A model generated the notes under the pieces. That model saw only the letters and a list, made by a program, of their open reading frames with translations, was not told the DNA's origin and searched no databases. The translations under genes and the position numbers were made by a program. Positions 1,244 to 43,800 of a stretch of 44,254 bases of DNA are shown one piece after another. Source of the DNA: a virus; UHGV virus genome UHGV-1376702. One strand, 5' to 3'. How positions within the stretch are numbered: position 1 is the first letter of the stretch; each line of letters begins with the position of its first letter.

Positions 1244-1546
1244 ATGGCAGGGGCAGCTAAACGCAGTCGCCTCTCGGAGCTGCACCGTATGTTCACCGAG
1301 GCCTTGATTGAAGAAATCAAGCAGTCTAAGGAAGATGAGGTGCCGCTCCCCGCAGCAGATAAATCGGTCATTGCTAAGTTCTTGAAGGATAACGACATCA
1401 CCGCGGACGCAGATTCCGAGGAGATGCAGGACCTTCGTGACGAATTCGATGACGAGCTAGCGGCGCGCAGAGAGGCGCGTAAGCAAGAGATTCTAAATAA
1501 AGTTGGTGGTTCAGACTCTGAGGACTTACTAGAAGGAATTGTCTAA
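1244..1546 (+). CDS. terminase small subunit (putative)
   Basis: 100 aa acidic protein with RBS AGGAGAAG; stop overlaps the start of the large terminase gene (TAATGG); position and size typical of T7-like small terminase. Confidence 0.5.
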   Translation: MAGAAKRSRLSELHRMFTEALIEEIKQSKEDEVPLPAADKSVIAKFLKDNDITADADSEEMQDLRDEFDDELAARREARKQEILNKVGGSDSEDLLEGIV

Positions 1547-3402
1547 TGGTATCGGTGAAGACTGCGCGAAGACTGCGCATGCTCAACCAGAAACTTACTG
1601 GTTATAGTGCGAATCCGCGCAGTATTCCCAAAGAGGAGCGCGAGGATATCGCGATGATGATGGCCGCGGCGCTAAGCGACTTCCGGGAATTCGCGTACAT
1701 CGGTATGCGGTTCCTGGGCTTTACGCTCACGGACATGCAGGCCGACATTGCAGAGTACATGCAGAAGGGCCCTAGGAAGCGAATGGTGGCCGCGCAGCGT
1801 GGTGAGGCTAAGTCTACACTAGCTGCGCTGTACGCCGTCTGGAGGCTCATACAGGACCAATCCTGCCGTATCCTGATTGTGTCTGGTGCAGAGAAGCAGG
1901 CGTCCGATGTAGCGAACTTAATCATTCGTATGCTGGAAACCTGGCCGCTGCTGTGCTACTTGAAGGCTGACTCTACTCGTGGGGACCGTACTTCATTCGA
2001 AGGTTATGATGTTCACTGCGACCTGAAACCTCTAGATAAGTCCGCCAGCGTAGCCTGTGTAGGTATCACTGCATCCCTGCAGGGGAAGCGTGCGGACCTG
2101 CTGATTCCGGATGATATCGAGACCACCAAGAATGGTTTAACGCAAACCCAGCGTGAGCAGCTGCTGATGATTTCTAAAGACTTCGCGGCTATCTGTACGC
2201 ACGGGGATACGCTGTACCTGGGTACACCACAGACCAAGGACAGTATCTATAAAACCCTGCCGGGACGTGGCTTCGAGGTCCGCGTGTGGCCCGGGCGCAT
2301 TCCGTCTGTTGAAATGGAAGAGCGATATGGAAGTACACTTGCTCCTTATATCCTGGAGCTTATTGAGCGCGGCTATAAACGCACCGGCTTCGGAGTCGAT
2401 GGGACGCTAGGCGAGAGCACGGACCCCGGGCGCTATGACGAGGATGCACTGATTGAGAAGGAGCTGGACTTTGGTCCGGAAGGCTTCCAGCTGCAGTACA
2501 TGCTCGACACCACCCTGTCCGACCAAATGCGTACGCGTATCAAGCTTTCGGATATGCTGGTTTACTCTGGCAGCCAGGAGTCCTCACCGGAGACGTTCTC
2601 CTACATCGCGGACCGCCGGTACCTGTACCAGCATGAGCATGAGGGGATTATGGGTCAGCAGATGTACTTCCCGGCATTCTACGGGGACATGCACCTGCCG
2701 TACCAGCATAAGGTACTGGTGGTGGACCCGGCTGGTTGTGGTGGGGACGAAGTGTCCTACGCTGCTGGAGGTGCTGCGAACTCGTACATTCACCTATTCT
2801 CCGTAGGCGGATTCCAAGGAGGTATCAGCGAAGAGAACATTGATAAACTGATTGACCTGTGTGTAGAGTTGGACATCCCGGATATGGTGGTGGAGAGCAA
2901 TATGGGGCACGGTACCGTGTCTATGCTTATCCTGAACCGATTACGTGAGCGGCGTCTCGCCGGTATCGGTGTAAGGGACCTGAATAACTCCACGCAGAAA
3001 GAGCGTCGTATCATCGACACAATCAGCCCAGTTACTCGTCGCCATCGCCTGATAGTGCATGAGCGTGCTATTCACGACGATATCAGTACCTGTATGGCAT
3101 ATTCCCGCGATAGGCGTTGGCTGTACTCTGCGTTCGCGCAGTTGTCCGGTATCACGTACGACCGCGGTAGCCTTGCGAAGGATGACCGGGCAGACGCAAT
3201 CGCCATGATGGTGGCTACGCTGAATGGGCATCTGGTGGAAGATGAGAAAGTGGTGGCTGAGCGTGAGTCTGAGAAGATGGCTCGGGCCTTCATTGAGAAC
3301 CCGCTGGATTGGGCACAGAGCAAAGTGTCTAAGGGCCTTCGGGGTGTAGCTGCTCGGCTGCATAACCGAGGCAGAGGTAAACAACATAGAGGAAGAAGAT
3401 AA
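1546..3402 (+). CDS. terminase large subunit
   Basis: 618 aa; N-terminal ATPase-like region (RMVAAQRGEAKST) and C-terminal nuclease-like region (VVDPAGCGGDEVSYAAGG); size and synteny match T7 gp19-type TerL. Confidence 0.85.
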   Translation: MVSVKTARRLRMLNQKLTGYSANPRSIPKEEREDIAMMMAAALSDFREFAYIGMRFLGFTLTDMQADIAEYMQKGPRKRMVAAQRGEAKSTLAALYAVWRLIQDQSCRILIVSGAEKQASDVANLIIRMLETWPLLCYLKADSTRGDRTSFEGYDVHCDLKPLDKSASVACVGITASLQGKRADLLIPDDIETTKNGLTQTQREQLLMISKDFAAICTHGDTLYLGTPQTKDSIYKTLPGRGFEVRVWPGRIPSVEMEERYGSTLAPYILELIERGYKRTGFGVDGTLGESTDPGRYDEDALIEKELDFGPEGFQLQYMLDTTLSDQMRTRIKLSDMLVYSGSQESSPETFSYIADRRYLYQHEHEGIMGQQMYFPAFYGDMHLPYQHKVLVVDPAGCGGDEVSYAAGGAANSYIHLFSVGGFQGGISEENIDKLIDLCVELDIPDMVVESNMGHGTVSMLILNRLRERRLAGIGVRDLNNSTQKERRIIDTISPVTRRHRLIVHERAIHDDISTCMAYSRDRRWLYSAFAQLSGITYDRGSLAKDDRADAIAMMVATLNGHLVEDEKVVAERESEKMARAFIENPLDWAQSKVSKGLRGVAARLHNRGRGKQHRGRR

Positions 3403-3776
3403 TGGCATCAATCATCGCAGCTAAAACTGCGGACGTACAGTACGCCATTGTAGGCACGTGCCAGAACCTGGAGAAGCAGGCGTCGCCGGACTACAACGTA
3501 GGCTTCGTAGGTACGACTGCCTTGACTAAGCTGAACGCGTTCTTCACGTACATGCAGTCCCAGGGCTATACGGCTACTCGTGCCGGTACAGCCTTCAAGG
3601 ATGACGGTACGCTGCAGGCGCGCCTGTTCAGCATGCTGTCACAGCTCTCTAAGACTGGCTACGTCGCCCTTACGGGTACAGGTATGCCGCTCGGTGAGGG
3701 CTCCGGTACAGCGTTTGATGATTCGTTCACTGCACTGCAGAGTGCGTTCGTAGCCGCCACTGACGCGGCAGAATAA
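3402..3776 (+). CDS. hypothetical protein
   Basis: 124-aa ORF, start overlaps terminase stop (ATAATGG); protein-like composition; no recognisable motif. Confidence 0.45.
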   Translation: MASIIAAKTADVQYAIVGTCQNLEKQASPDYNVGFVGTTALTKLNAFFTYMQSQGYTATRAGTAFKDDGTLQARLFSMLSQLSKTGYVALTGTGMPLGEGSGTAFDDSFTALQSAFVAATDAAE

Positions 3777-3787
3777 GGAGAGTACAC

Positions 3788-3970
3788 ATGGCAATTGCAA
3801 AAGCAACCCCAGCGCAACAGCAGGAGCTGCTGCGTCAGCTGAACATTCTCGGTAAGGACCTGTATGCTATCCTTACGCAGCCGCAGAACGTGGCCCAGAC
3901 TGGTGCTGCCTTCGATACCAAGATTGCTGCGCTTGAAGCCGCGGTGGCCGCAGTGAAGGCTGCTAGCTAA
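3788..3970 (+). CDS. hypothetical protein
   Basis: 60-aa ORF with RBS GGAGAG upstream; Ala/Gln-rich, helix-like; no transmembrane segment. Confidence 0.35.
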   Translation: MAIAKATPAQQQELLRQLNILGKDLYAILTQPQNVAQTGAAFDTKIAALEAAVAAVKAAS

Positions 3971-4374
3971 TGCGTAAACTGGTCGCTGGGTTGCTGCTCG
4001 CGGTTACTCTGACTGGTTGCTCGGCGACCTCTGCACTCACCGGATTAGTTGGTTCTAAGCCGGATGTATCTGCTCAGGTTGGTGCCGAGAACACCAAACA
4101 AACCGTTGGCTTGAATAACAAGGTGGACTCCAGCACCACCAACAAAACTGATGTACAGGATTCTAACGTAGGCACTTTGGACACGTCCAGTAAGAAGCAG
4201 GTGCAAACTATTAGCACCGGGACAATCCAGGCAGAACGCCTGCAGGTGGTTAACAATGATAGTTACAGTCTTATCCTCGCCGGATTAGCTGGGGCCAGTA
4301 TTCCTCTGGTCTTCCTAGTGGTCATTCTGGTGATTCGTAAGCTGTTCAGGAAGAAGGGGCAGCAGGATGATTAA
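3970..4374 (+). CDS. unimolecular spanin (u-spanin) candidate
   Basis: 134 aa; N-terminal lipoprotein signal with lipobox LTGC; Ser/Thr/Gln-rich middle; C-terminal TMD (LILAGLAGASIPLVFLVVILVI) then RKLFRKK. This is the architecture of T1 gp11-type u-spanins; no Rz/Rz1 pair is visible. Confidence 0.6.
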   Translation: MRKLVAGLLLAVTLTGCSATSALTGLVGSKPDVSAQVGAENTKQTVGLNNKVDSSTTNKTDVQDSNVGTLDTSSKKQVQTISTGTIQAERLQVVNNDSYSLILAGLAGASIPLVFLVVILVIRKLFRKKGQQDD

Positions 4375-4618
4375 GGTGGGAGACATGGTTGGAGCAGACC
4401 TCGCTACCCGGGCAGGTGCAGCAGTTACCGGCGCTACGGTATCAGGAGGTTGGTTGGCAGAGTTAATGAGCTGGAACTGGAGCACTATCAGCTTCATCAC
4501 TGCGACTGTGTGCGCAGTGCTAACCCTGGCGTGGAATGCGTATTACAAACGACGTACATTCAAGCTCCTAGAGGAGCAGGCACGTAAGGGGACTATTAAA
4601 TATGAGTTTAAGGACTAA
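4367..4618 (+). CDS. pinholin / holin candidate
   Basis: 83 aa (alternative start ATG 4385 with RBS AAGGTGGGAG); weakly hydrophobic Gly/Ala-rich segment (AGAAVTGATVSGGWLA) followed by a strongly hydrophobic TMD (WSTISFITATVCAVLTLAW) and a basic C-terminus; immediately 5' of a SAR endolysin. Confidence 0.5.
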   Translation: MIKVGDMVGADLATRAGAAVTGATVSGGWLAELMSWNWSTISFITATVCAVLTLAWNAYYKRRTFKLLEEQARKGTIKYEFKD

Positions 4619-5210
4619 GGTTATTGCGGCCCTCACGGGGGCCACTATGCTTGGCGGTGCCATTACCGGGGTGGTTCAGCACAACGAGGGGTTGAGCCTT
4701 ACCGCCTATAAGGATAGTGCCGGTGTCCCTACAATCTGCTACGGAGAGACAAAGGGCGTCAAGATGGGTCAGAGAGCCACGCTGAGCGATTGTCAGAAGC
4801 AACTGATAGAATCAGCAGGGGCACATGCAAAGGCTCTTGACGGGCTTCCTGTGCAGCTCTCTGACGTAGCTCTGGTTGGGTCTGTAGACTTCATTTATAA
4901 CGTAGGCGTAGCTGGCTTCAACGGCAGTGCTGTGAAGCGGCATCTCAAAAGCCTGAATTACGCAGCAGCTGGAAAGGCTGTACTGGACTGGCGCTATATT
5001 AGCAAGTACCAGCAGAAATCCCCGGGCATCGGTTGGGTGTACAAGGGCAGCAACCGCTGGACCTTCGACTGCTCTCAGTATATTAACGGGCAGCGCAATA
5101 AAGTGTGCTGGGGCCTATGGGAGCGCAGACAGTGGCAGAGCAAGGCCATTGGGAATCAGTATAAGAATGTAAATGCTGCGGTGGCAGCTCTTACTAAGAC
5201 CGGAGGATAA
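4602..5210 (+). CDS. SAR endolysin (T4-lysozyme-like muramidase, GH24-type)
   Basis: 202 aa; N-terminal signal-arrest-release-like weakly hydrophobic stretch (VIAALTGATMLGGAITGVV); catalytic motif E-x8-D-x5-T (NEGLSLTAYKDSAGVPT) typical of T4L/lambda R-type lysozymes. Confidence 0.8.
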   Translation: MSLRTKVIAALTGATMLGGAITGVVQHNEGLSLTAYKDSAGVPTICYGETKGVKMGQRATLSDCQKQLIESAGAHAKALDGLPVQLSDVALVGSVDFIYNVGVAGFNGSAVKRHLKSLNYAAAGKAVLDWRYISKYQQKSPGIGWVYKGSNRWTFDCSQYINGQRNKVCWGLWERRQWQSKAIGNQYKNVNAAVAALTKTGG

Positions 5211-7166
5211 ATGGCGTTAATTAGATTAGTAGCTCCAGAGCGGGTATTCTCCGACTTGGCGAGCATGGTAGCATATCCAAACTTTCAGGTACAGGACAAG
5301 ATTATCCTGCTGGGCAGCGCCGGTGGGGACTTCACCTTTACTACTGCTGCGTCGGTAGTGGATAACGGAACTGTGTTTGCTGTACCCGGTGGGTATCTGC
5401 TTCGTAAATTCGCGGGCCCGGCATACAGCTCCTGGTTCAGCAATTGGGCGGGCATAGTCACGTTCATGAGTGCACCTAATAGGCACCTGGTTGTGGACAC
5501 AGTCTTGCAGGCCACGAGTGTGCTCAACATCAAAAGCAACTCTACGCTAGAGTTTACTGACACCGGAAGAATCCTGCCGGATGCTGCGGTTGCACGTCAG
5601 GTGCTTAACATTATCGGCTCGGCACCATCGGCGTTCGTGCCGTTAGCAGCGGATGCCGCAGCGGGCAGCAAAGTCATTACGGTGGCTGCCGGGGCTTTGT
5701 CTGCGGTAAAAGGTACGTACTTGTATCTTCGCTCTAACAAGCTGTGCGACGGTGGGCCTAACACGTACGGTGTAAAGATTTCCCAGATTAGGAAAGTGGT
5801 GGGAGTCAGCACCTCCGGTGGCGTCACCAGTATTCGGCTGGATAAAGCGCTGCACTATAACTACTACCTGTCTGATGCCGCGGAAGTAGGCGTCCCTACA
5901 ATGGTAGAGAACGTAACCCTAGTATCTCCGTACATCAACGAGTTCGGCTACGACGACTTGAACCGGTTCTTTACTATCGGTATCTCTGCCAACTTTGCCG
6001 CGGACTTGCACATCCAGGACGGGGTTATTATTGGCAACAAACGCCCCGGGGCTTCTGATATAGAAGGGCGTAGTGCTATCAAGTTCAATAACTGCGTAGA
6101 TAGTACCGTTAAGGGTACGTACTTCTACAACATCGGATGGTATGGGGTAGAGGTGCTCGGCTGCTCAGAGGACACGGAAGTACACGATATCCACGCCATG
6201 GACGTACGCCACGCAATCTCTCTGAACTGGCAGAGCACTGCAGACGGGGACAAGTGGGGAGAGCCTATCGAGTTCTTAGGCGTTAACTGCGAAGCCTACA
6301 ACACAACCCAAGCTGGGTTTGATACTCATGACATTGGTAAGCGTGTGAAGTTCGTTCGATGCGTTTCGTACGACAGTGCTGACGATGGGTTCCAAGCGCG
6401 CACTAACGGGGTAGAGTACTTGAACTGTCGAGTTTACCGTGCAGCTATGGACGGGTTCGCCTCCAACACCGGTGTAGCCTTCCCTATCTATAGGGAGTGC
6501 CTAGCTTATGACAACGTACGCTCTGGCTTTAACTGCTCGTACGGCGGTGGCTACGTTTATGACTGCGAGGCTCACGGTAGCCAGAATGGTGTGCGAATCA
6601 ACGGGGGCCGTGTTAAGGGTGGTCGGTACACCCGCAACTCCAGCTCTCACATCTTCGTTACTAAGGACGTAGCTGAGACAGCGCAGACACCCCTGGAGAT
6701 TGATGGCGTGAGCATGCGCTACGACGGTACCGGGAGAGCTGTGTACTTCCACGGGACTATGGGCATTGACCCTACCCTGGTATCTATGTCCAATAACGAC
6801 ATGACCGGTCACGGCTTGTTCTGGGCATTGCTGAGCGGCTACACCGTTCAACCTACGCCTCCGCGCATGTCCATGAACTTACTGGATGACACAGGTATCC
6901 GTGGAGTGGCAACTCTGGTGGCTGGTGAGGCTACAGTCAACGCCCGTGTACGCGGAAACTTTGGCAGCGTAGCTAACTCCTTCAAGTGGGTGTCTGAGGT
7001 TAAGTTGACGCGGTTGACCTTTCCCTCTAGTGCTGGGGCCTTGACGGTTACTGGCGTAGCTCAGAACCAGGATGTGCCTACACCTAATCCGGACCTAAAC
7101 AGCTTCGTGATTAGGAGCAGTAACGCAGCGGACGTATCCCAGGTAGCCTGGGAGGTGTATCTCTAA
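5211..7166 (+). CDS. tailspike / probable polysaccharide depolymerase (beta-helix)
   Basis: 651 aa; start directly follows the endolysin stop; Gly/Asn/Val/Thr-rich sequence with repetitive short beta-strand pattern (e.g. NCVDSTVKGTYFYNIGWYGVEV) typical of right-handed beta-helix tailspikes; last structural-type gene before the non-coding terminus. Confidence 0.6.
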   Translation: MALIRLVAPERVFSDLASMVAYPNFQVQDKIILLGSAGGDFTFTTAASVVDNGTVFAVPGGYLLRKFAGPAYSSWFSNWAGIVTFMSAPNRHLVVDTVLQATSVLNIKSNSTLEFTDTGRILPDAAVARQVLNIIGSAPSAFVPLAADAAAGSKVITVAAGALSAVKGTYLYLRSNKLCDGGPNTYGVKISQIRKVVGVSTSGGVTSIRLDKALHYNYYLSDAAEVGVPTMVENVTLVSPYINEFGYDDLNRFFTIGISANFAADLHIQDGVIIGNKRPGASDIEGRSAIKFNNCVDSTVKGTYFYNIGWYGVEVLGCSEDTEVHDIHAMDVRHAISLNWQSTADGDKWGEPIEFLGVNCEAYNTTQAGFDTHDIGKRVKFVRCVSYDSADDGFQARTNGVEYLNCRVYRAAMDGFASNTGVAFPIYRECLAYDNVRSGFNCSYGGGYVYDCEAHGSQNGVRINGGRVKGGRYTRNSSSHIFVTKDVAETAQTPLEIDGVSMRYDGTGRAVYFHGTMGIDPTLVSMSNNDMTGHGLFWALLSGYTVQPTPPRMSMNLLDDTGIRGVATLVAGEATVNARVRGNFGSVANSFKWVSEVKLTRLTFPSSAGALTVTGVAQNQDVPTPNPDLNSFVIRSSNAADVSQVAWEVYL

Positions 7167-7261
7167 GTAGATCCCTGGGGTATCTCTACGGTATCCCGGG
7201 GCACTGCTGGGGTGCACGTCTATACCTGGACATGAAATTTATTAGACTTTAAAATGAGGAT

Positions 7262-7723
7262 ATGTCTATGAACATCAAATATGACACAACATCCCCTAGC
7301 TGCTTGGTGTGGCTCAAGGGTAGGCGCGCCGGTGCTCCAGCGGGTACCCGCAACACTCGTGGCTACTGGGTGGTACAGGTATCTGGTAGAAAGATACAGG
7401 CACACCGCCTCATCTGGGAACTACACAACGGGCCTATTCCAGACGGATATGTGGTGGACCACATCAACCAAAACCCCAGTGACAACAGATTAGAGAACCT
7501 GCGCTTAGCTACGGTTAGCGAAAACAACTGTAACGCACGCAGGTCTAAGCGGGAACATCCTAGGGGTGTATACTACACTGGCACCTGCTGGCGCGGGGAG
7601 TTCTGGAAGGACGGTAAGCGTTACATGAAGAAGCACAGCTCCTACGAAGTTATCTGCAAGTGGGTACTAGAGAAACGTCAAGAGCAACACAAGGCCTTCA
7701 CCCCGGGGCATGTGTATACCTGA
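7262..7723 (+). CDS. HNH homing endonuclease
   Basis: 153 aa; HRLIWELHNGPIPDGYVVDHINQNPSDNRLENLRLAT matches the HNH_3-type motif of free-standing phage homing endonucleases; RBS AATGAGGA. Confidence 0.8.
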   Translation: MSMNIKYDTTSPSCLVWLKGRRAGAPAGTRNTRGYWVVQVSGRKIQAHRLIWELHNGPIPDGYVVDHINQNPSDNRLENLRLATVSENNCNARRSKREHPRGVYYTGTCWRGEFWKDGKRYMKKHSSYEVICKWVLEKRQEQHKAFTPGHVYT

Positions 7724-7810
7724 AACCAAAAATTATTATACTCACCCTTGGGCCTCCCTCACCCTCAACGCGCCCAATTGCCCCCATAGGGGGTGCCTAG
7801 CGTCAATTTA

Positions 7811-7821
7811 GGGGGGGGGGG
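7811..7821. repeat. G11 homopolymer tract
   Basis: Eleven consecutive G in the non-coding region. Confidence 0.9.
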
Positions 7822-7928
7822 CACTGGTGGGGCCTGCTAGTGCGCACTAGAGCGCCTCAGCGGGCCTGTGCTGCGCTCTAAGGCTATTGCCAGTGCTACC
7901 CTATGGCTATCACTGTGCGTTCACTAGG

Positions 7929-7972
7929 GCGCTTCCTGTGCGCTTCCTGTGCGCTTCCTGTGCGCTTCCTGT
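7929..7972. repeat. tandem direct repeat, 4 x 11 bp (GCGCTTCCTGT)
   Basis: Four perfect head-to-tail copies read directly from the sequence. Confidence 0.9.
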
Positions 7973-8240
7973 GGGCCATAGGGGCGTGCTCTGCCTTGCT
8001 TATTTTGTGCGCCTCAGTGGGCCTGCCTAGTGCCTGTCTAGTGCCTGCGCAGTGGGGCCATAGGGTATGCCTAGTGCTATCCCTAGTGTGCACTAGGCTA
8101 TCCACTGGCTATCCTTAGTGCTTTACATTGTGCTAATTATGTGCTACGCTGCGCGCTCCCCACTAGGGCGCACATCCACCACACCGCACTATCCAGCGCT
8201 ATCCCTTTGCTCTTACTTTCATTCGAAAGCTATTATGAAA

Positions 8241-32873: not shown

Positions 32874-33893
32874 ATGGCCAACACTATTTATAATGGCAAC
32901 CTGACTCGTCCGCACTGGGGCGGCGCAGACTCCGACGTAGACGTTCACCTGGAAGTGTACCAGAACGAAGTGGATACCCGCTTCCAGTACCAGGCTCTAT
33001 TCCTGGGCCTCTCCAGCCAGCGCTCTATCAGCGGTTCCAACACCTACCGTATTGACCGACTGAACACCTCCTCGGTGAAAGGTCGTCGCTCCGGTGAGGC
33101 GCTGGATAGCACTCCGGTCCGTAACGATAAGATGATTATCGTGGTGGATACGGTGCTGTATATCCGTAACCCGATTGACTACCAGGATGACTGGACCGGT
33201 CCGGACTTCCTGACTGAGATGGGCCAGAACAACGGCTCGGAGTTCGCGGAGACCTTCGACCAGGCGCACCTGATTCAGCTCATCAAGGGCCGTTCCTGGG
33301 TTGCTCCGGCGCACTTGAAACCGGCGTTCAACGACGGTATCGAGGTAGGCGCAGCTATCCTGGTTCCGGGTACCACCACCGCCACTCAGCTGACCCAGGC
33401 TGAGATGGAGGCGAACGCCATGAACATCAACCTGGCCCACAAGGCTGGTATTGACGAACTCATCAAGCGTAAGACCCCGCTGGCGGACATGATTACCCTG
33501 GTGGACGTCGATACCTATTCGCGTCTGCTGGAGCATCCGAAGCTCCTGAACCTGGACTTCGGCGCGTCCAACAATGATGGTTACAAAGACCGTCGTGTAG
33601 TGAAGATGAACGGTGTACCTGTAGTTGAGTGCACCGAGTTCCCGACCGCTGCTGGTACGCACCCGCTGGGCTCCGCTTACACCATCACCGCTGACGACGC
33701 GCTGTGCCGTATGGTGACTTTCAGCAAGTCCAAGACCCTGGTGACTGTTGAGGCTAAGCCGTTCACCTCCCGTATCTGGGATGATGAGCGAGAGTTCAGC
33801 AACGTGCTGGACTGCTACGCAATGTACAACATCGGTCTGCGTCGTCCGGACACCGCTGCAGTGACCAAGTTCACCTTCACCACCAAGTCCTAA
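32874..33893 (+). CDS. major capsid protein
   Basis: 339 aa; RBS AAGGAAA; co-linear resemblance to T7 gp10A (e.g. KMIIVVDTVLYIRNPIDYQD versus T7 KVITIDGLLTADVLIYDIED); followed by a strong terminator. Confidence 0.85.
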   Translation: MANTIYNGNLTRPHWGGADSDVDVHLEVYQNEVDTRFQYQALFLGLSSQRSISGSNTYRIDRLNTSSVKGRRSGEALDSTPVRNDKMIIVVDTVLYIRNPIDYQDDWTGPDFLTEMGQNNGSEFAETFDQAHLIQLIKGRSWVAPAHLKPAFNDGIEVGAAILVPGTTTATQLTQAEMEANAMNINLAHKAGIDELIKRKTPLADMITLVDVDTYSRLLEHPKLLNLDFGASNNDGYKDRRVVKMNGVPVVECTEFPTAAGTHPLGSAYTITADDALCRMVTFSKSKTLVTVEAKPFTSRIWDDEREFSNVLDCYAMYNIGLRRPDTAAVTKFTFTTKS

Positions 33894-38093: not shown

Positions 38094-40778
38094 ATGCCTG
38101 TGATTCAACCCAGTAGACAGGGGTTAAATATCGGAGGAGTGCAACTGCAGTCCAACGATGTTAGCTTACCGTCAACGGTAAGTGAGGTGTCTGTTGATAC
38201 CTCCAAAGCAAAACGCCTAGCTGCCCTGTCAGGGTTCGTGCAGGACTTCGGCGTAGGGTTTGACGAAGCAGTAAAAGAAAACGCTGCAGCCGCCACGGTG
38301 CGCGGCGCAATGGATGCCCAGGGCGCAGTAGATGCAATGGCTTCCAAAGATGAGGCTGTACAGAAGCAGAACATCTTCGTACGCGAGGCCTATCAGGATG
38401 GCTACGTATCCGCCGCTGCATACGACTCTCTAGCCAAATGGCGCACGGATAGCATCGCACGAGCTAAGAAAGCTGCTGAGTCTGGTCTGACTGACGAGGA
38501 GTTCCAGCAGCAAGAGCAAGAGCACGTACAGTCAATGGCAGACAAGCTCGGGATGTATCTCCCGGACATGTCCAAACAGTCTGCCACGAATATACTGCAG
38601 CAGCTCCGTGCTACGAGCATGGCGAACTATACAGCCTTCCAGAAAGGGCGCGCGGCGTTTGCCGTGGCTCAGGCTGACCGCGCACTTGACCGTGGCCTCA
38701 GCTCGTCCAGTGATGAGTTCTATCAGCGTCTACAGGCAGGACAGGGTGCCGCCGCGCAGATGTCTATCAAGACCGGCTTAGACAGCATCCTGGCTGCTGA
38801 GCACCTGGACAAGAGCAAGAAGCTGGACCGGGCCAAGCAGTATCTGGTCAGCGTAGCGCAGCAGACTCAGGACCCGCTGGTAATCAACCAGCTGCAAGGA
38901 CTGGCTACCAAGGAACTCGGGGTTAACTCAGTGGACGTCAACGCGGCTCTGTATCAGGAGTTCAAGCGCGCTGGTGCTCAGATTGAGACGCAGGCCCGTT
39001 TTGAAATCTCTGACACAATCTCTTCCTTAGAGGGGCAGACTCCTGAGCAGCAGGAACAGACTATGGCGCGCATTCGTAGTCGTGTCATTGAGCTGTCGGC
39101 ATCGGACGTGCTCAGCGCTGGAACCAGCATGGAGTTCTGGAACAAGGCCCAGACCATTCGTGAGAAGGCAGCGGACACCCAGGCATTGCGCACAGCGATT
39201 ACTGGGAACATGCCAAGCTCCACCCTGGCGGGGATGTACAAGGGGGACCTGGGTAAGGCTCGCAGCGAGCTGCTCAAGAGCTTTCCGGATACCCCGGAAG
39301 GGAACCTGCAGCTGCTGGCATACGGAAGCAACAGCAAGGATGCGTGGGCCGTCAACGAGGCGCACAAGCGTATGTCTTCGGACATGGCACGTACACTGAC
39401 TACGCTGGACCAGCTCGGTGAGGACGGTGAGGTTTCCCGTGAGAACGTCAGCAGCATCAACTTGTGGGCACAGGCTTATAGTACCAGTACGGACTTAGGT
39501 AAGATGGCGCTGCTGTCTGAGGTACCGTCTGAGTGGCAGGGGGTGGTGCAGAAAGCTATCGCACAAAACCCGAGCAATGCCAGCGATACTATTTTGGATG
39601 ACCTGCGCCGCCAGGCACGTAACAAGGCCAGTGGGCGCTACAGCAATATCCAGAGTAACCCAACTGACAAGATGGTGGACCCTAGTGGCACCAGCAACTG
39701 GTTCAGTTTCTTCGGTGATGCCGACGCTCAGCGCCAGGAAGCGCGCGCTGCTATGGAAGAGGAGTATCGTTATACGTACAGCCGCAATCCGGAATCTCTG
39801 GTAGGTAAGGATGCTGAGGACATCAACACGATGCTCAAAGGCAACATCCAAGCCCGTAAGCTGGAGCTGGAGATTGCAGGCACACCGAGGCACGTGTATC
39901 TGCCTGCAGGTACCTCTCTGCAGTCTATCATGGGCGACTACAAGGGCGACCAGGAGCAGTTCAAGGCTACTCTGCAACAGCAGATTCAAAACCAAGTCCA
40001 GGCCATCACCGACCCCAGCAACATGGAACGTGTAGTGGTGCAGGCTGCCACAGCAGGCAACGCGGGTCAGAACATGACCGTAACCGTGTTCGACAAGAAG
40101 GGCACATTCCAGACTATGTCTGTGAACCTCCGTGACGTTCAGGCTACTGCGCAGGCTGCGTACGATTCGGCACTGGCTGGGGATATGAAGATTGGCAGCG
40201 AGCAAGTGGGCGTACGTCCTGCCACCTTCTACGACCACGACAATGGGCGCGCTGTCAGCGTACAGGTCAACGGTCGTAACGCGGTGGGGCTGGAACCATC
40301 GCTGTTTAGTGACATCCTCGCCACCACTATGAAGTTCGAAGGGTTCCGAGAAGGCAAGGGCAGGGGTAGCGTAGGCTTCGGTCTGCACGTTAACTCGGGC
40401 ATGCCTGTCCCTCAGAAAGTAACCATTGACGACGGTATCAGTATCCTTAAATCCTCTATGGAGAGGCAGTACGTTCCGAACGTGCAGAAGCAACTCAAGG
40501 GGCAGGGTTTGAATGCCTCCGATGAGGCGTTAAAGGTTATGGTGGACCTGAACTATCACGGTGGTAACGGTAGCTCTGGTCCTGTAGCAGAGGCGATGGC
40601 ACAGGTACGTAAGGCTGCCAAGTCCCCGGTGGGGGCGTATCAGTATCCTGTATCTGAGGCCCAGGGTAGGGCTTGGCAAGCGCTGAGGAATACCCCGGCG
40701 TACAAGCAGGCCCAACCTGAGCGTAAGAAGTACCTGGAACAAAACCTACGTGATTGGCTCTTTGAGGCAACACACTAA
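38094..40778 (+). CDS. internal virion protein with C-terminal lysozyme-like domain (gp15-like)
   Basis: 894 aa; helical Gln/Ala-rich body; C-terminal segment MKFEGFREGKGRGSVGFGLHV resembles a lysozyme-type E...G..G.G core (inference). Confidence 0.65.
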   Translation: MPVIQPSRQGLNIGGVQLQSNDVSLPSTVSEVSVDTSKAKRLAALSGFVQDFGVGFDEAVKENAAAATVRGAMDAQGAVDAMASKDEAVQKQNIFVREAYQDGYVSAAAYDSLAKWRTDSIARAKKAAESGLTDEEFQQQEQEHVQSMADKLGMYLPDMSKQSATNILQQLRATSMANYTAFQKGRAAFAVAQADRALDRGLSSSSDEFYQRLQAGQGAAAQMSIKTGLDSILAAEHLDKSKKLDRAKQYLVSVAQQTQDPLVINQLQGLATKELGVNSVDVNAALYQEFKRAGAQIETQARFEISDTISSLEGQTPEQQEQTMARIRSRVIELSASDVLSAGTSMEFWNKAQTIREKAADTQALRTAITGNMPSSTLAGMYKGDLGKARSELLKSFPDTPEGNLQLLAYGSNSKDAWAVNEAHKRMSSDMARTLTTLDQLGEDGEVSRENVSSINLWAQAYSTSTDLGKMALLSEVPSEWQGVVQKAIAQNPSNASDTILDDLRRQARNKASGRYSNIQSNPTDKMVDPSGTSNWFSFFGDADAQRQEARAAMEEEYRYTYSRNPESLVGKDAEDINTMLKGNIQARKLELEIAGTPRHVYLPAGTSLQSIMGDYKGDQEQFKATLQQQIQNQVQAITDPSNMERVVVQAATAGNAGQNMTVTVFDKKGTFQTMSVNLRDVQATAQAAYDSALAGDMKIGSEQVGVRPATFYDHDNGRAVSVQVNGRNAVGLEPSLFSDILATTMKFEGFREGKGRGSVGFGLHVNSGMPVPQKVTIDDGISILKSSMERQYVPNVQKQLKGQGLNASDEALKVMVDLNYHGGNGSSGPVAEAMAQVRKAAKSPVGAYQYPVSEAQGRAWQALRNTPAYKQAQPERKKYLEQNLRDWLFEATH

Positions 40779-40828: not shown

Positions 40829-43800
40829 ATGGCTCAGTTTCTGAACCAAGAACCGAATCCACAGGAAAAGGATTCTGCTAAGGGCGCAACACTTAAACCT
40901 GCGCCTGAGCGCGTAGATTGGAACGATGCCGGAGACAACGGCTTAAACGCACTGGAGCGTGCCTCCTTACTGGCGCAGGCCAAGACCCCAGCTACTACAG
41001 CCGGGGAGAGCTTTGCGTCTGGTATGGGTAACAGCATCATCGCCGCAGCTATCCGTAAGGCCTCTGCCCCGGCATTTGACCGGGACCAGAACTTTAACGC
41101 CAAGCAGACTCTGAGCAGCGATACCAGGGCTAAGCTGTATGCTCCGAATCAGGAAGAGATTGAGTACCTGCACGACTCTGTATCGGTCGAGGATTACAAC
41201 TACCGCATGCAGCAGATGCTTGAGCAACGCAACCGTGACCGCTTAATGGCTGACAACACGGTAGCCGGGTTCGCGGGTATGTTGGTGGGTGATTCTCCGT
41301 TCATCCTGGCCCCGATGTCTGCCGCTGGTATTGCTGGCCGCGCAGGCTTAGCTGCACGGACTGCTATCCGCGCTGCTGACGTAGGCTCCGCATTCTATGC
41401 GCAGGACCAACTGGGCCAGTCTGCTGCGGTAACTGCACTGGTAGCGGGCGTAGCTGGGTTGGACCAGCTCTGGGATATGTCTAGGGCTGCTAAAGCTGCT
41501 GCTAAGGCTCGTACTGGGCGTGAGCCTATGTTCGACCCAGAAGCGCCTACAACTCGTACAGCGAGGGACGCTAATGTTACAGGAGTAGGAGAGGGAGAGG
41601 AAATTCTCACTAAGACACTGGGTGAAAGCATCCAAGTATCGAGAAACAATACCGCCTCCGTGAACATGAAAGCACAGCACGTAGTTCAGTTCTTGAAGAA
41701 GTCTGAGCACTTGACAGCAGGACAGAAGGCTATTCTGGACACGCTGGGCGATGCTGTAAATGACATTGATTTTAAACTGGTAGCAGGCTCCGCAAACCGT
41801 AGCCGCTACACTTACGCACAACAAGATTTAGCTAAGCGTGGAGAGATATCCCTGCGCGCGCCTAAGCAAGCTAACGGCAGCACCTGGACTACAGTCGGTG
41901 ATGCGCTGCGCGCTATGGATGCAGATACAAGCAAGGTGGCCGTGCACGAACTGATTCATGCCGCTACTGCGCGCGCCATTGACAGTAATCCCGAGATTGC
42001 TAAACGCCTGGAGGAAGTGCGCGCTGTTATTGCAGCTGACTCCACCCTGACACCGCGTATGCGGTATTACGCAAGTAATGTGCATGAGATGCTGGCAGGT
42101 TTAGGCGACAGCCCTGAGTGGGTTGAGCACCTGGCACGTACGCAGTCTCCCACCGGTAAGAGCATGCTCCGCCAACTGGGTGAGTACATCATGAATGCCT
42201 TGGGCATCAAAGCCAAGGGCTCTGCCTTGGAGGATGTCCTGGATGCGTATGAGGACGCAGTTAAGTGGACCGCTAAGGATTATGCAGACCAAGCCCAGAG
42301 CTTCCGTAGCGAAGCCTTCCAGGACCTGGCGGGCAGCACCACCCTCAATGAGGCTAAGAGCGCCCAAGCTATGCTGGACGGCGCCAAGAAGAAGCTCTCC
42401 ACTATGTTTGCCCTGTACGATAATATCGCTCAAGGCAACGAAGACTTGGCTAAACTGCTAGTGTCGGATGCGTCCGCAGTAGGCGGCCGTCGCCCGTCAG
42501 TGGTAGACTACAAGCGTAACCTCACTTTGGAGATGGATGCTCGCGCCAGCGTAGTGGAAGATGCTATCCTGGGTGCGTTGAAGGATAAGGGTGTAGGGGT
42601 GCTCTCACGCTTCTTCCATCGTAGTAATTTCCGCGCTGAGCGGGCTGCGCTGGAAGACCGCCTGAGTAAGTACCTGGATGCTGCCTACAGCGCTGACGTA
42701 AACGGTCGCGCTGTTCCGGTACCGGATGCAGAGATTGCTCCGCTGGTTGATGCCTATCATCGCTCTGGCTGGGCTAGCAAGTGGCATGATCACATGACCG
42801 CTGCTGGCTTGGTGGATGATGGTGCGTTGGTTAAATCCGACTACTACTTCCCGCGCCAGTACAGCTACGACAAGATGCGCCAAGGTATCGCACAGGGTAA
42901 CACTCTGGATGACTACCGCGCCCTGTTCCGGTCCGCCCTGCGGGACGTGTACCCGAGCATGGAGTCAGAGGTAGTGCAGCGTGTTGCTAAGGAGATGGTT
43001 GACGGTATCTACAACGGCCGTGCTGGGCAGTCTGGTCCTATGTGGAAGCAGCTGATTAACGGTATGGGTAACGACGAGGTCGTTATGGCTATGCGTAGCG
43101 CTGGTGTAGAAGAGTCTGCAATCCAGAGCTTCCTGGCTGGTAACGTACGAGAATCCGGCAGCACATCCCCTGCGCGGAACCTGCGTCAGCGTACTCGGTT
43201 CAACATGGACAAAGAGTACCTGATTAACGGAAAGAGCATGCGCATGCAGGACCTGATGGATACTGACGTAGCCAAGGTTATGCACGGGTACACTAACCGT
43301 ATGTCTGGACGTGTAGGCATGGCCTATGCAGGCGTACAGGACCTGGGGCAGCTCGCTAAGATGATTGATGAGTCTAAGCACGCACTGGCGGATTCCGCTA
43401 AGTGGGAGAAGACCGTTAATGACACCATCGACTTTATCCTGGGCGGGGCACCTGCTGACGCCGGGCAGCTTCCGGACTTGCTGCGAGCAGCTGGGAACAT
43501 GGCTAACGCTACCATGCTTAAGAACTCCGGCCTGTATCAGCTGACTGATACTGCTCTGGCTATGAAGGAGTTCGGTATGGCTAGAGTGCTGCGCAGTATG
43601 CGTGACCAGCCTTGGTTCAAGGAAGGTGCCGTAGCTATCAATACTCCGGATATGGCTGCCCGTCTAGACACCGTGCTGCGAGGCAATATCCAGAAGGAGA
43701 TGCGATTCCGCTGGCTGAATACATACGCTGACGATAACCTGGACCTGACCCGTCAGGCCTCCTGGTTCAACGTCACTCAGAACGTCGGGCAGGCTGCACG

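Follow-up and report, generated by a model that had tools for sequence, protein, structure and literature searches.

The window analysed here, a 44,254-nucleotide stretch of viral DNA (UHGV virus genome UHGV-1376702), comes from a Klebsiella phage of the KP34-like genus Drulisvirus (Autographiviridae, Slopekvirinae). On its + strand, two small genes with ATG starts, encoding proteins of 124 amino acids (3402-3776) and 60 amino acids (3788-3970), lie between the gene for the large terminase subunit (1546-3402; Pfam Terminase-T7_RNaseH-like, 1.3e-30; PHROG terminase large subunit, 1e-116) and the lysis cassette (3970-5210). The cassette, also on the + strand, was recognised from Pfam, PHROG and hydropathy. 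First comes the spanin gene (3970-4374), whose product has both a lipobox and, at its C-terminus, a transmembrane domain (TMD); next are the genes for a holin (4367-4618) and for an endolysin of lysozyme type that is hydrophobic at its N-terminus (4602-5210). An earlier sequence-only reading had placed the two open reading frames in this slot, and the ORF, Pfam and PHROG evidence agrees with it. Reading of the + strand gives a Shine-Dalgarno site for each gene, GAGGA at 3389-3393, 8 nt 5' of the ATG of the longer gene, and AAGGAG at 3775-3780, 7 nt 5' of the ATG of the shorter gene, where it overlaps the stop codon of the longer one (3774-3776). At both ends of the pair a TAATG joins a stop to a start codon. 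At 3400-3404 the terminase stop TAA (3400-3402) overlaps the ATG of the 124-residue gene (3402-3404), and at 3968-3972 the stop of the 60-residue gene overlaps the start of the spanin gene. A terminator scan found no terminator-like site on the + strand from 2166 to 7981, and promoter and terminator scans of the + strand between 3300 and 4400 gave nothing above chance. Given the overlapping junctions and the lack of a + strand terminator, both proteins are very probably co-expressed with the terminase and spanin, as had been suspected from their position beside packaging and lysis genes. Rfam at gathering thresholds and a tRNA scan gave no matches in the whole window, so no RNA element accounts for the region. 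Other ORFs inside the two genes lie at 3580-3753 and 3864-3956 on the + strand and at 3639-3806 and 3659-3817 on the - strand.

Both ORFs are real genes and not chance ORFs, because they have Shine-Dalgarno sites, full-length PHROG matches, homologues in many phages and low dN/dS. The 124-residue protein matches PHROG 7128 over its full length (E 7.8e-80) and the 60-residue protein PHROG 7375 (E 2.9e-39). Homologues were found by tblastn in 213 and 265 phage records, respectively, and the host tallies include phages of Klebsiella, Escherichia, Shigella, Enterobacter, Cronobacter, Salmonella, Acinetobacter and Listeria; the few records inspected are all of Slopekvirinae type. Neither protein gave a tblastn match at E <= 0.01 in Pseudomonas phages. 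Conservation in related genomes, on which the sequence-only reading had let its proposal depend, is extensive, with both genes kept in more than 200 Drulisvirus genomes. Across 47 distinct related loci dN/dS is 0.133 for the longer gene and 0.125 for the shorter one, which indicates purifying selection; the terminase, spanin and endolysin genes have comparable values (0.074, 0.107 and 0.106).

The sequence-only reading was also right that neither protein has a TMD or a recognisable motif. The maximum Kyte-Doolittle mean over 19 residues is 0.98 for the 124-residue protein and 1.12 for the 60-residue protein, versus 2.66 for the spanin, and no Pfam family scored below E 0.1 with either. A signal sequence and a match to a nucleic-acid-binding family are likewise absent from both. 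The classical decoration families modelled in Pfam, such as lambda gpD, T4 Hoc and Soc and Ig-like domains, were considered and have no match to either protein. Both PHROGs are listed as 'unknown function'. The sequence-only reading and most annotators saw nothing because Pfam was empty and the PHROGs offered only this label. In public records the labels are almost throughout 'hypothetical protein' or 'unknown function', and in a few of them the pair is mislabelled as 'tail tip protein', 'tail assembly protein', 'tail fiber protein' or 'exonuclease'. Such annotations would suit a pair of non-structural small late proteins, acting as accessory factors of packaging or lysis, and so would position taken by itself, since the pair shares overlapping stop and start codons with the terminase and spanin genes and no promoter or terminator sets the two genes apart from these neighbours.

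The pair had been called unannotatable and its role unknown, and in this the sequence-only reading was mistaken, as a sequence search of the PDB names both products as decoration proteins. The hits of the 124-residue protein are 23sf_A, 'decoration protein gp6' (E 2.9e-72, with residues 1-124 aligned to 1-124), and 8eld_M, Gp47 of the Shigella phage HRP29/Buco (E 6.5e-45, 1-121 on 1-120). Those of the 60-residue protein are 23sf_G, 'decoration protein gp5' (E 2.5e-29), and 8eld_H, HRP29 Gp48 (E 2.6e-20), in both cases with residues 1-60 on 1-60. Profile searches with the two families gave E values of 3e-66 and 1.4e-61 for the longer protein and 7e-37 and 7e-26 for the shorter one against 23sf and 8ELD. 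Identity to gp6 and gp5 of 23sf is about 95% and 97% over the full length, that is, 2 to 6 substitutions; identity to the 8ELD chains is 57-69% in Foldseek structural alignments. The protein roles in 23sf are the depositors' molecule names. The major capsid protein of the window (339 aa; 32874-33893, + strand) matches 'major capsid protein gp17' of 23sf (E 1.4e-222), Gp37 of 8ELD (E 2.7e-178) and, at E 4.5e-92, the major capsid protein gp38 of the Pectobacterium phage PhiM1. Its gene lies about 14.8 kb upstream of the decoration genes on the permuted circular map, or about 29 kb from them in window coordinates.

In 23sf, gp6 and gp5 have the same lengths as the two proteins here, 124 and 60 aa, and are accompanied by a homologous major capsid protein. 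The sister entry 23sh contains a homologue of the tail fibre of this phage (E 2.3e-175). The 23sf phage is evidently another Drulisvirus, a different isolate whose record, to judge from its gene numbers, runs the other way round; four phage records carry its gp6 at 99.2% identity and none at 100%. Gp47 and Gp48 of HRP29/Buco are also of 124 and 60 aa and adjacent by number, and they are full-length homologues with the same folds and a homologous capsid protein. They differ in coming from a phage of another host, Shigella, and of another genus within the Slopekvirinae, and in the lower identity. Because near-identical chains have been modelled in capsid entries, we take the two products to be virion structural proteins and not packaging or lysis accessories. 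We are highly confident that the products of both genes are auxiliary proteins of the capsid (decoration or cement proteins) in this Drulisvirus, probably of the type of alpha-claw clamps between capsomers. The identity of both proteins is already known, and the HRP29/Buco and 23sf capsids provide the prior explanation. The identity of about 95% to gp6 of 23sf suggests that the outer capsid of the present phage carries its protein as well, with the major capsid protein as the probable binding partner of both decoration proteins.

Profile and structure searches, which had been proposed as a check on the two genes, both gave strong matches to capsid chains. The AF2 model of the 60-residue protein (pLDDT 88, pTM 0.69) has helices at residues 8-30 and 35-59 joined by the turn QPQN (31-34), and in Foldseek it superposes on the experimental chain 8eld_H with TM 0.82/0.88 and an rmsd of 1.2 A. 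That of the 124-residue protein (pLDDT 88, pTM 0.83) has four helices (10-33, 40-53, 69-92 and 99-119). It superposes on the experimental chain 8eld_L with TM 0.77/0.82 and an rmsd of 2.5 A over 118 columns, and on the BFVD model of Buco Gp47 with TM 0.94. HRP29/Buco provided the sole significant Foldseek matches in the PDB and BFVD. The 60-residue model also found two PhiM1 chains, 8vb0_N and 8vb0_J (the latter the alpha-paw chain), at ranks 2 and 4 of 162 matches with TM 0.63-0.68 and 30-31% identity; their probability is 0.82-0.87 and their E value only about 1, and a two-helix hairpin is a very common shape. The models thus predict the 60-residue protein to be an alpha-claw-like helix-turn-helix hairpin. 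In the 124-residue protein the predicted C-terminal hairpin (approximately residues 69-119) bears the claw motif and an N-terminal hairpin completes a four-helix unit.

The motif is common to the two proteins at the level of sequence as well. In hhalign the C-terminal half of the 124-residue family aligns with the 60-residue family at P 4e-4 to 1e-3 and 34-36% identity. The score of 22.2 was reached in 0 of 150 column shuffles, which gave 9.0 +/- 1.9. The residues paired are, with the longer protein named first, K84/K23, Y87/Y26, L90-T91/L29-T30, G102/G39 and F105-D106/F42-D43. Invariant columns gather at the end of helix 1 and in the turn, namely T30-Q31-P32 in the shorter protein and K84-P96 in the longer one; in PhiM1 it is at this region of helix 1 and turn that the clip loop contacts the capsid (PMC11440229).

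PhiM1 (PDB 8VB0; PMC11440229), a phage of a different subfamily, the Corkvirinae, offers a parallel in which both organisation and mode of binding are described. Its alpha-claw (62 aa) and alpha-paw (179 aa) have a common helix-turn-helix capsid-binding motif, so that, as here, one decoration protein is the motif alone and the other an extended form, and claw dimers clip adjacent capsomers together (PMC11440229). The two PhiM1 genes, at 39733-39921 and 39932-40471, directly follow the large terminase (maturase B) and precede the lysis genes, and they match the claw and paw chains of 8vb0 at E 1.7e-32 and 2.6e-94. The PhiM1 pair therefore occupies the same slot between terminase and lysis genes and has a homologous HK97-fold capsid protein as its partner. 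Its gene order is reversed relative to the window, with the short gene first. The alpha-paw has an N-terminal claw followed by a long 'forearm' rich in Ala, Thr and Val, whereas in the 124-residue protein the claw is C-terminal and the extra hairpin N-terminal. In hhalign the 60-residue family showed no significant similarity to the alpha-claw (P 0.035 over 14 columns) or the alpha-paw (P 0.089). Searched as a profile against 1.84 billion representative proteins, the same family gave only about 10 genuine short relatives and no apparent bridge to the claws of PhiM1 or phiKMV. Long matches to this profile with several Ala/Gln-rich stretches were regarded as low-complexity noise.

A third system is the phiKMV-like Ar-KM, in which dimers of gp55 form four-helix-bundle 'staples' of capsomers. 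The decoration protein gp55 and the spike gp54 share a helical core (about 55-59 residues), which dimerises into such a bundle, and the authors call them analogous to Buco gp47/gp48 (bioRxiv 10.64898/2026.05.18.726046). As published, gp54 carries this core at its N-terminus and a barrel at its C-terminus, unlike the longer protein here. It is highly improbable that the two proteins are non-structural small late proteins. Their near-identical counterparts are modelled alongside the major capsid protein in capsid reconstructions, their predicted folds match capsid chains, and a phage of another subfamily, PhiM1, encodes decoration proteins in the same slot. The absence of a TMD, a signal sequence and a nucleic-acid-binding family match also argues against that reading.

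If the two are capsid clamps, the comparison with HRP29, PhiM1 and Ar-KM suggests how they may act. Two copies of the 60-residue protein would pair antiparallel into a four-helix bundle, which would sit on the outer surface of the capsid, on a two-fold or quasi-two-fold axis between capsomers. The 'clip loop' of each hairpin, T30-Q31-P32-Q33, would plug into a pocket of the major capsid protein on either side, and the loops would thereby staple adjacent hexamers and pentamers. In the 124-residue protein the C-terminal half would present this capsid-binding hairpin, with the second, N-terminal hairpin packed compactly against it and with T91-P96 expected to enter the 'clip pocket' of the capsid protein, and the protein may fill a distinct subset of the sites between capsomers. 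Both proteins would be late products, made alongside those of the terminase and lysis genes, and would join the shell after or during expansion. Dimerisation, the exact sites and the stabilising function are proposed by analogy with PhiM1 and Ar-KM and from secondary accounts of Gp47 and Gp48.

How the longer protein fills its sites may be envisaged in more than one way. It may be a single-chain claw that has been internally duplicated, a pseudo-dimer that occupies a whole site between capsomers; this is compatible with a decoration role for the pair, and we regard it as possible, if somewhat doubtful. In the compact model (pTM 0.83) the four helices form a pair of hairpins about equal in size, the whole model matches the experimental HRP29 chain (TM 0.77/0.82), and the N-terminus MASIIAAK resembles MAIAKAT of the shorter protein. 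In hhalign the two halves are weakly similar, with the register kept (P 0.017, a score reached by 4 of 150 shuffles). The chain counts fit as well. Per asymmetric unit a T=7 shell offers 3.5 two-fold sites between capsomers; the 23sf entry contains 3 chains of gp5 (1.5 dimers) and 2 of gp6, which makes 3.5 sites if each gp6 fills one site, and the PhiM1 entry has 5 + 2 chains, or 3.5 dimers. On the single-chain model 23sf would imply some 90 dimers (180 copies) of the shorter protein and roughly 120 copies of the longer one per capsid. In Ar-KM as in PhiM1, however, the longer protein is also present in 2 copies per asymmetric unit that form one homodimer, so that the count fits a dimer equally well. 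The N-terminal half, moreover, shows no similarity to the 60-residue family, with 33 of 150 shuffles reaching the score, and does not have the K-Y-LT-G-FD motif. Because this comparison gives no signal and that between the halves is only suggestive, internal duplication of the 124-residue protein is a suggestion and not an established feature.

A further reading accepts that the proteins are on the capsid and places their main role elsewhere than in reinforcement. In particular, the 124-residue protein could be a surface adhesin or display module, directed at capsule, mucus or surfaces, for which the claw is only an anchor. The longer of the two proteins has variable outward-facing extras in related phages, such as the forearm of the PhiM1 alpha-paw, for which its authors suggested adhesion (PMC11440229), the variable C-terminal barrel of Ar-KM gp54 (bioRxiv 10.64898/2026.05.18.726046), and the Gly/Thr-rich tail that follows a claw-like N-terminus in gp57 of phiKDA1. 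In the Cronobacter phage Peggy the slot holds an additional GDSL-hydrolase gene, the enzyme part of which is 47-48% identical to proteins annotated as hoc or head decoration in T4-like phages. In the family alignment of the 124-residue protein, the N-terminal half is also more variable than the C-terminal half. Here, however, the extra part is only a helical hairpin of 60 residues, which is predicted to pack on the claw hairpin (pTM 0.83) and not to project. It has no similarity to known binding domains in Pfam or in Foldseek searches of the PDB and BFVD, and a dN/dS of 0.13 gives no sign of diversifying selection. We therefore consider an adhesive or display role distinctly unlikely as the main function and favour the clamp. 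The N-terminus of the Peggy GDSL protein was also considered as a claw-like sequence and gave no signal against the 60-residue family (P 0.38).

The diversity of the longer proteins permits a wider speculation, which we put forward as an unlikely but not negligible reading. The slot between terminase and lysis genes could be a modular 'capsid-display' locus, conserved in several subfamilies of the Autographiviridae, in which a hairpin of about 55-60 residues anchors interchangeable cargo. Under this same joint reading, the cargo would be the forearm in PhiM1, a small barrel in phiKMV-like phages and the Gly/Thr-rich tail in phiKDA1, and the 124-residue protein of Drulisvirus and Buco would be the single-chain duplicated claw; in Peggy the cargo could be a GDSL esterase derived from Hoc. 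The idea of a modular anchor has been voiced before for Ar-KM gp54.

For this window the result carries little scientific weight, because cryo-EM of HRP29/Buco (2023-24) and of a nearly identical phage of Klebsiella (23sf) had already established the proteins and their role. Its practical value lies in mending the 'hypothetical protein' labels in more than 200 Drulisvirus genomes, many of which are therapeutic candidates against K. pneumoniae. Clamps exposed on the surface of the capsid would have a bearing on the stability, formulation and immunogenicity of these phages, and the hairpin of 60 residues may have a bearing on the choice of a display anchor in engineered Klebsiella phages.

Between the terminase genes and the lysis cassette the genome has two ORFs on the + strand, of 124 aa (3402-3776) and 60 aa (3788-3970), at exactly the positions given in the sequence-only reading. 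Each has a good Shine-Dalgarno sequence (GAGGA at 3389-3393 and AAGGAG at 3775-3780, respectively). The stop codon of the large terminase gene overlaps the ATG of the 124-aa ORF, that of the 60-aa ORF overlaps the ATG of the spanin gene, and no promoter-like or terminator-like sites above chance were found on the + strand between the two ORFs and their neighbours. In a comparison of 47 distinct related loci, dN/dS was 0.133 for the 124-aa gene and 0.125 for the 60-aa gene (dS ~0.41), while the neighbouring genes ranged from 0.07 to 0.24. The two genes are real, constrained and expressed as proteins, which confirms the observation. The proposed absence of a transmembrane domain also stands, the maximum 19-residue Kyte-Doolittle mean being 0.98 for the 124-aa and 1.12 for the 60-aa protein, neither of which has a hydrophobic segment.

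The region 3300-4100 shares 96-97.5% DNA identity with over 150 genomes of Klebsiella phages from the genus Drulisvirus (KP34-like; Autographiviridae, Slopekvirinae). Upstream lie the small (1244-1546) and large (1546-3402) terminase genes, and downstream the overlapping genes of the lysis cassette (3970-5210), in the order spanin (3970-4374), holin (4367-4618) and lysozyme-type endolysin (4602-5210). The spanin has both a C-terminal membrane segment (Kyte-Doolittle mean 2.66, residue 104) and a lipoprotein signal (lipobox LTGC; Pfam LPAM_1) on one polypeptide, the layout of a unimolecular spanin, and is variously named 'Rz-like spanin', 'U-spanin' or hypothetical in public records. The hydrophobic N-terminus of the endolysin (1.82 at residue 7) suggests a signal-anchor-release type. 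In Pfam, the tailspike (5211-7166) hits each of the three domains of the K1 capsule-specific polysaccharide lyase (E 2.6e-39 for the N, 7e-38 for the Rider and 2e-16 for the C domain), and the target of the phage is probably K1-capsule Klebsiella pneumoniae. Shortly after the tailspike gene comes a gene for a 153-aa HNH_3 homing-type endonuclease (7262-7723; Pfam E 1e-22); in vB_Kpl_K39PH122C2, the sole relative inspected, the equivalent stretch (5973-7504 of locus L001) has no annotated gene. An ORF of ~1232 codons, which judged by its position probably encodes an internal core/ejection protein, starts at 40829 and runs over the end of the sequence (44254) into 1-273. The 44,254-base genome is therefore complete and circularly permuted, and the 90-aa 'ORF' at 1-273 is simply the C-terminal end of this gene.

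Neither protein has a match in Pfam, both PHROGs (7128 for the 124-aa and 7375 for the 60-aa protein) are of 'unknown function', and nearly all GenBank records label the two genes hypothetical. The suggestion that they are unannotatable and of unknown role does not survive a PDB sequence search, in which both match named decoration proteins or chains of capsid entries. The 124-aa protein matches 'decoration protein gp6' of a Klebsiella phage capsid (23sf_A; E 2.9e-72) over its full length with six substitutions, and Gp47 of Shigella phage HRP29, also called Buco (8eld_M; E 6.5e-45, residues 1-121 on 1-120). The 60-aa protein matches, also over its full length, 'decoration protein gp5' (23sf_G; E 2.5e-29, two substitutions) and Gp48 of HRP29 (8eld_H; E 2.6e-20). 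The names in 23sf are those of its depositors, and 8ELD is an icosahedral reconstruction of HRP29. The major capsid protein (32874-33893) has homologues in the same entries (23sf gp17, E 1.4e-222; 8ELD Gp37, E 2.7e-178), and the sister entry 23sh contains a homologue of the tail fibre; the capsid and tail fibre matches therefore indicate that 23sf is the capsid of a closely related Drulisvirus. In a search of 5.8 billion proteins the sole informative name was 'Chain L, Gp47 [Shigella phage Buco]', given to a protein 69% identical to the 124-aa one; being designated a chain, that protein belongs to a solved structure. A few records carry misleading names: the 124-aa gene is a 'tail tip protein' in Kpn BHU2 and an 'exonuclease' in vB_KpnP_Ou2, and the 60-aa gene a 'tail assembly protein' in phage KA and a 'Tail fiber protein' in vB_Kpn_HF0522. 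In the fHeKpn01 record the 124-aa protein is a 'putative structural protein'.

AlphaFold2 models built from homologue alignments had a mean pLDDT of 88 for each protein. The 60-aa model is a helix-turn-helix hairpin (residues 8-30 and 35-59) that superposes on the experimental Gp48 chain of HRP29 with TM 0.82/0.88 and rmsd 1.2 A. The 124-aa model is compact (pTM 0.83), with four helices forming two hairpins (10-33 and 40-53; 69-92 and 99-119), and superposes on the experimental Gp47 chain with TM 0.77/0.82 and rmsd 2.5 A over 118 columns, and on the BFVD model of Buco Gp47 with TM 0.94. Beyond HRP29/Buco, no significant match to the 124-aa model was found in PDB or BFVD. The best PDB matches of the 60-aa model after HRP29 are capsid chains of Pectobacterium phage PhiM1 (8vb0_N and 8vb0_J; TM 0.63-0.68, 30-31% identity). 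By sequence and predicted fold, we assign the two proteins to the HRP29 Gp47 and Gp48 families.

The two families also share a motif. In profile-profile comparison, positions 72-116 of the 124-aa family pair with positions 11-53 in the 60-aa family (P 4e-4 to 1e-3, 34-36% identity), with a score of 22.2 against 9.0 +/- 1.9 in column shuffles, none of 150 of which reached it. The invariant or near-invariant residues of each family fall on the same columns (K84 with K23, Y87 with Y26, L90-T91 with L29-T30, G102 with G39 and F105-D106 with F42-D43) and are grouped where the first helix ends, in the turn and where the second helix begins, the pattern predicted by capsid contact through a clip loop at the hairpin turn. 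An internal duplication within the 124-aa protein is suggested by the likeness of its N-terminal to its C-terminal hairpin; this is not established, because that likeness is weak (P 0.017; 4 of 150 shuffles reach the score) and the N-terminal hairpin does not resemble the 60-aa protein (33 of 150). Two predicted proteins from metagenome contigs, P0050 (86 aa; contig of only 551 bases) and P0175 (55 aa), are in-frame chimeras of a 124-aa N-terminus and a 60-aa C-terminal part, in which the former ends ...TKLN in one and ...IVGK in the other. Either natural deletions between the two paralogous genes or artefacts of assembly could account for them.

PhiM1 has two decoration proteins with a common helix-turn-helix motif, the 'alpha-claw' (62 aa) and the 'alpha-paw' (179 aa). 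Each makes homodimeric four-helix bundles, which span the two-fold and quasi-two-fold axes between capsomers at 5:2 chains per asymmetric unit, with additional contacts to two further subunits; the authors regarded HRP29 as the only other phage with such a decoration fold (PMC11440229). The claw and paw genes (L050:39733-40471, JX290549) lie directly after the large terminase gene and before the lysis genes, as do the two genes here, but in the opposite order, starting with the short gene. The paper's numbering of the two PhiM1 proteins (gp44, gp43) disagrees with the JX290549 locus tags. The capsid proteins of the two phages are homologous (E 4.5e-92). Membership of the PhiM1 claw system is not demonstrable by sequence; the relationship is backed by structure, by synteny and by the homology of the capsid partners. 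The gp55 dimers of the phiKMV-like phage Ar-KM are four-helix 'staples' between capsomers, and its gp54 joins a variable domain facing outward to the same core of 55-59 residues; the authors consider this pair analogous to Buco gp47/gp48 (bioRxiv 10.64898/2026.05.18.726046).

Most likely, then, both proteins work like the PhiM1 alpha-claw system. Borrowing the mechanism from these described relatives, we explain both best as clamps between capsomers, produced late in infection, that would attach to the expanded shell and strengthen it against the pressure of the DNA inside; the 60-aa protein would be the minimal claw and the 124-aa protein a claw with an added helical hairpin. The latter may form a paw-like dimer, or a single chain may fill one site as a pseudo-dimer. 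A T=7 asymmetric unit has 3.5 sites, and the chain counts (three gp5 and two gp6 in 23sf, four Gp48 and two Gp47 in 8ELD, five and two in PhiM1) fit either reading.

Both genes are conserved in related genomes: 213 phage records hold the 124-aa family and 265 the 60-aa family, most of them from Klebsiella phages and some from phages of Escherichia, Shigella, Salmonella, Cronobacter and Enterobacter. In sequence the 60-aa family has a narrow range, as only ~10 genuine clusters came up when 1.84 billion representative proteins were searched with its profile. The 60-aa gene is retained in Enterobacter phage phiKDA1, where the 124-aa gene is replaced by one for a 95-aa protein, gp57 (L002:3703-3990). 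The first 54 residues of gp57 align with the 60-aa claw family (hhalign P 1e-4, 42% identity), and its Gly/Thr-rich C-terminal tail bears a weak likeness to the last part of the alpha-paw of PhiM1 (BLASTP E 0.03). This layout is paw-like, and thus the longer decoration protein differs in architecture among genera. Cronobacter phage Peggy has an additional 393-aa gene between its 124-aa and 60-aa homologues (PV796109.1 39380-40561; L003:2817-3998). Its product has a GDSL/SGNH hydrolase domain at residues 213-376 (Pfam E 8e-17), and over residues 63-387 it has 47-48% identity to proteins that T4-like Enterobacter and Klebsiella phages carry under the annotation 'hoc / head outer capsid / head decoration'; these proteins lack its first 62 residues. 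A podophage capsid may here carry an enzyme by means of a swapped anchor; a claw-like N-terminus is unsupported (hhalign P 0.38).

The identity of both proteins was already known and is not new here; the label of an unannotatable gene pair reflects database lag, not biology. The main use of the result is the transfer of annotation to hundreds of Drulisvirus genomes.
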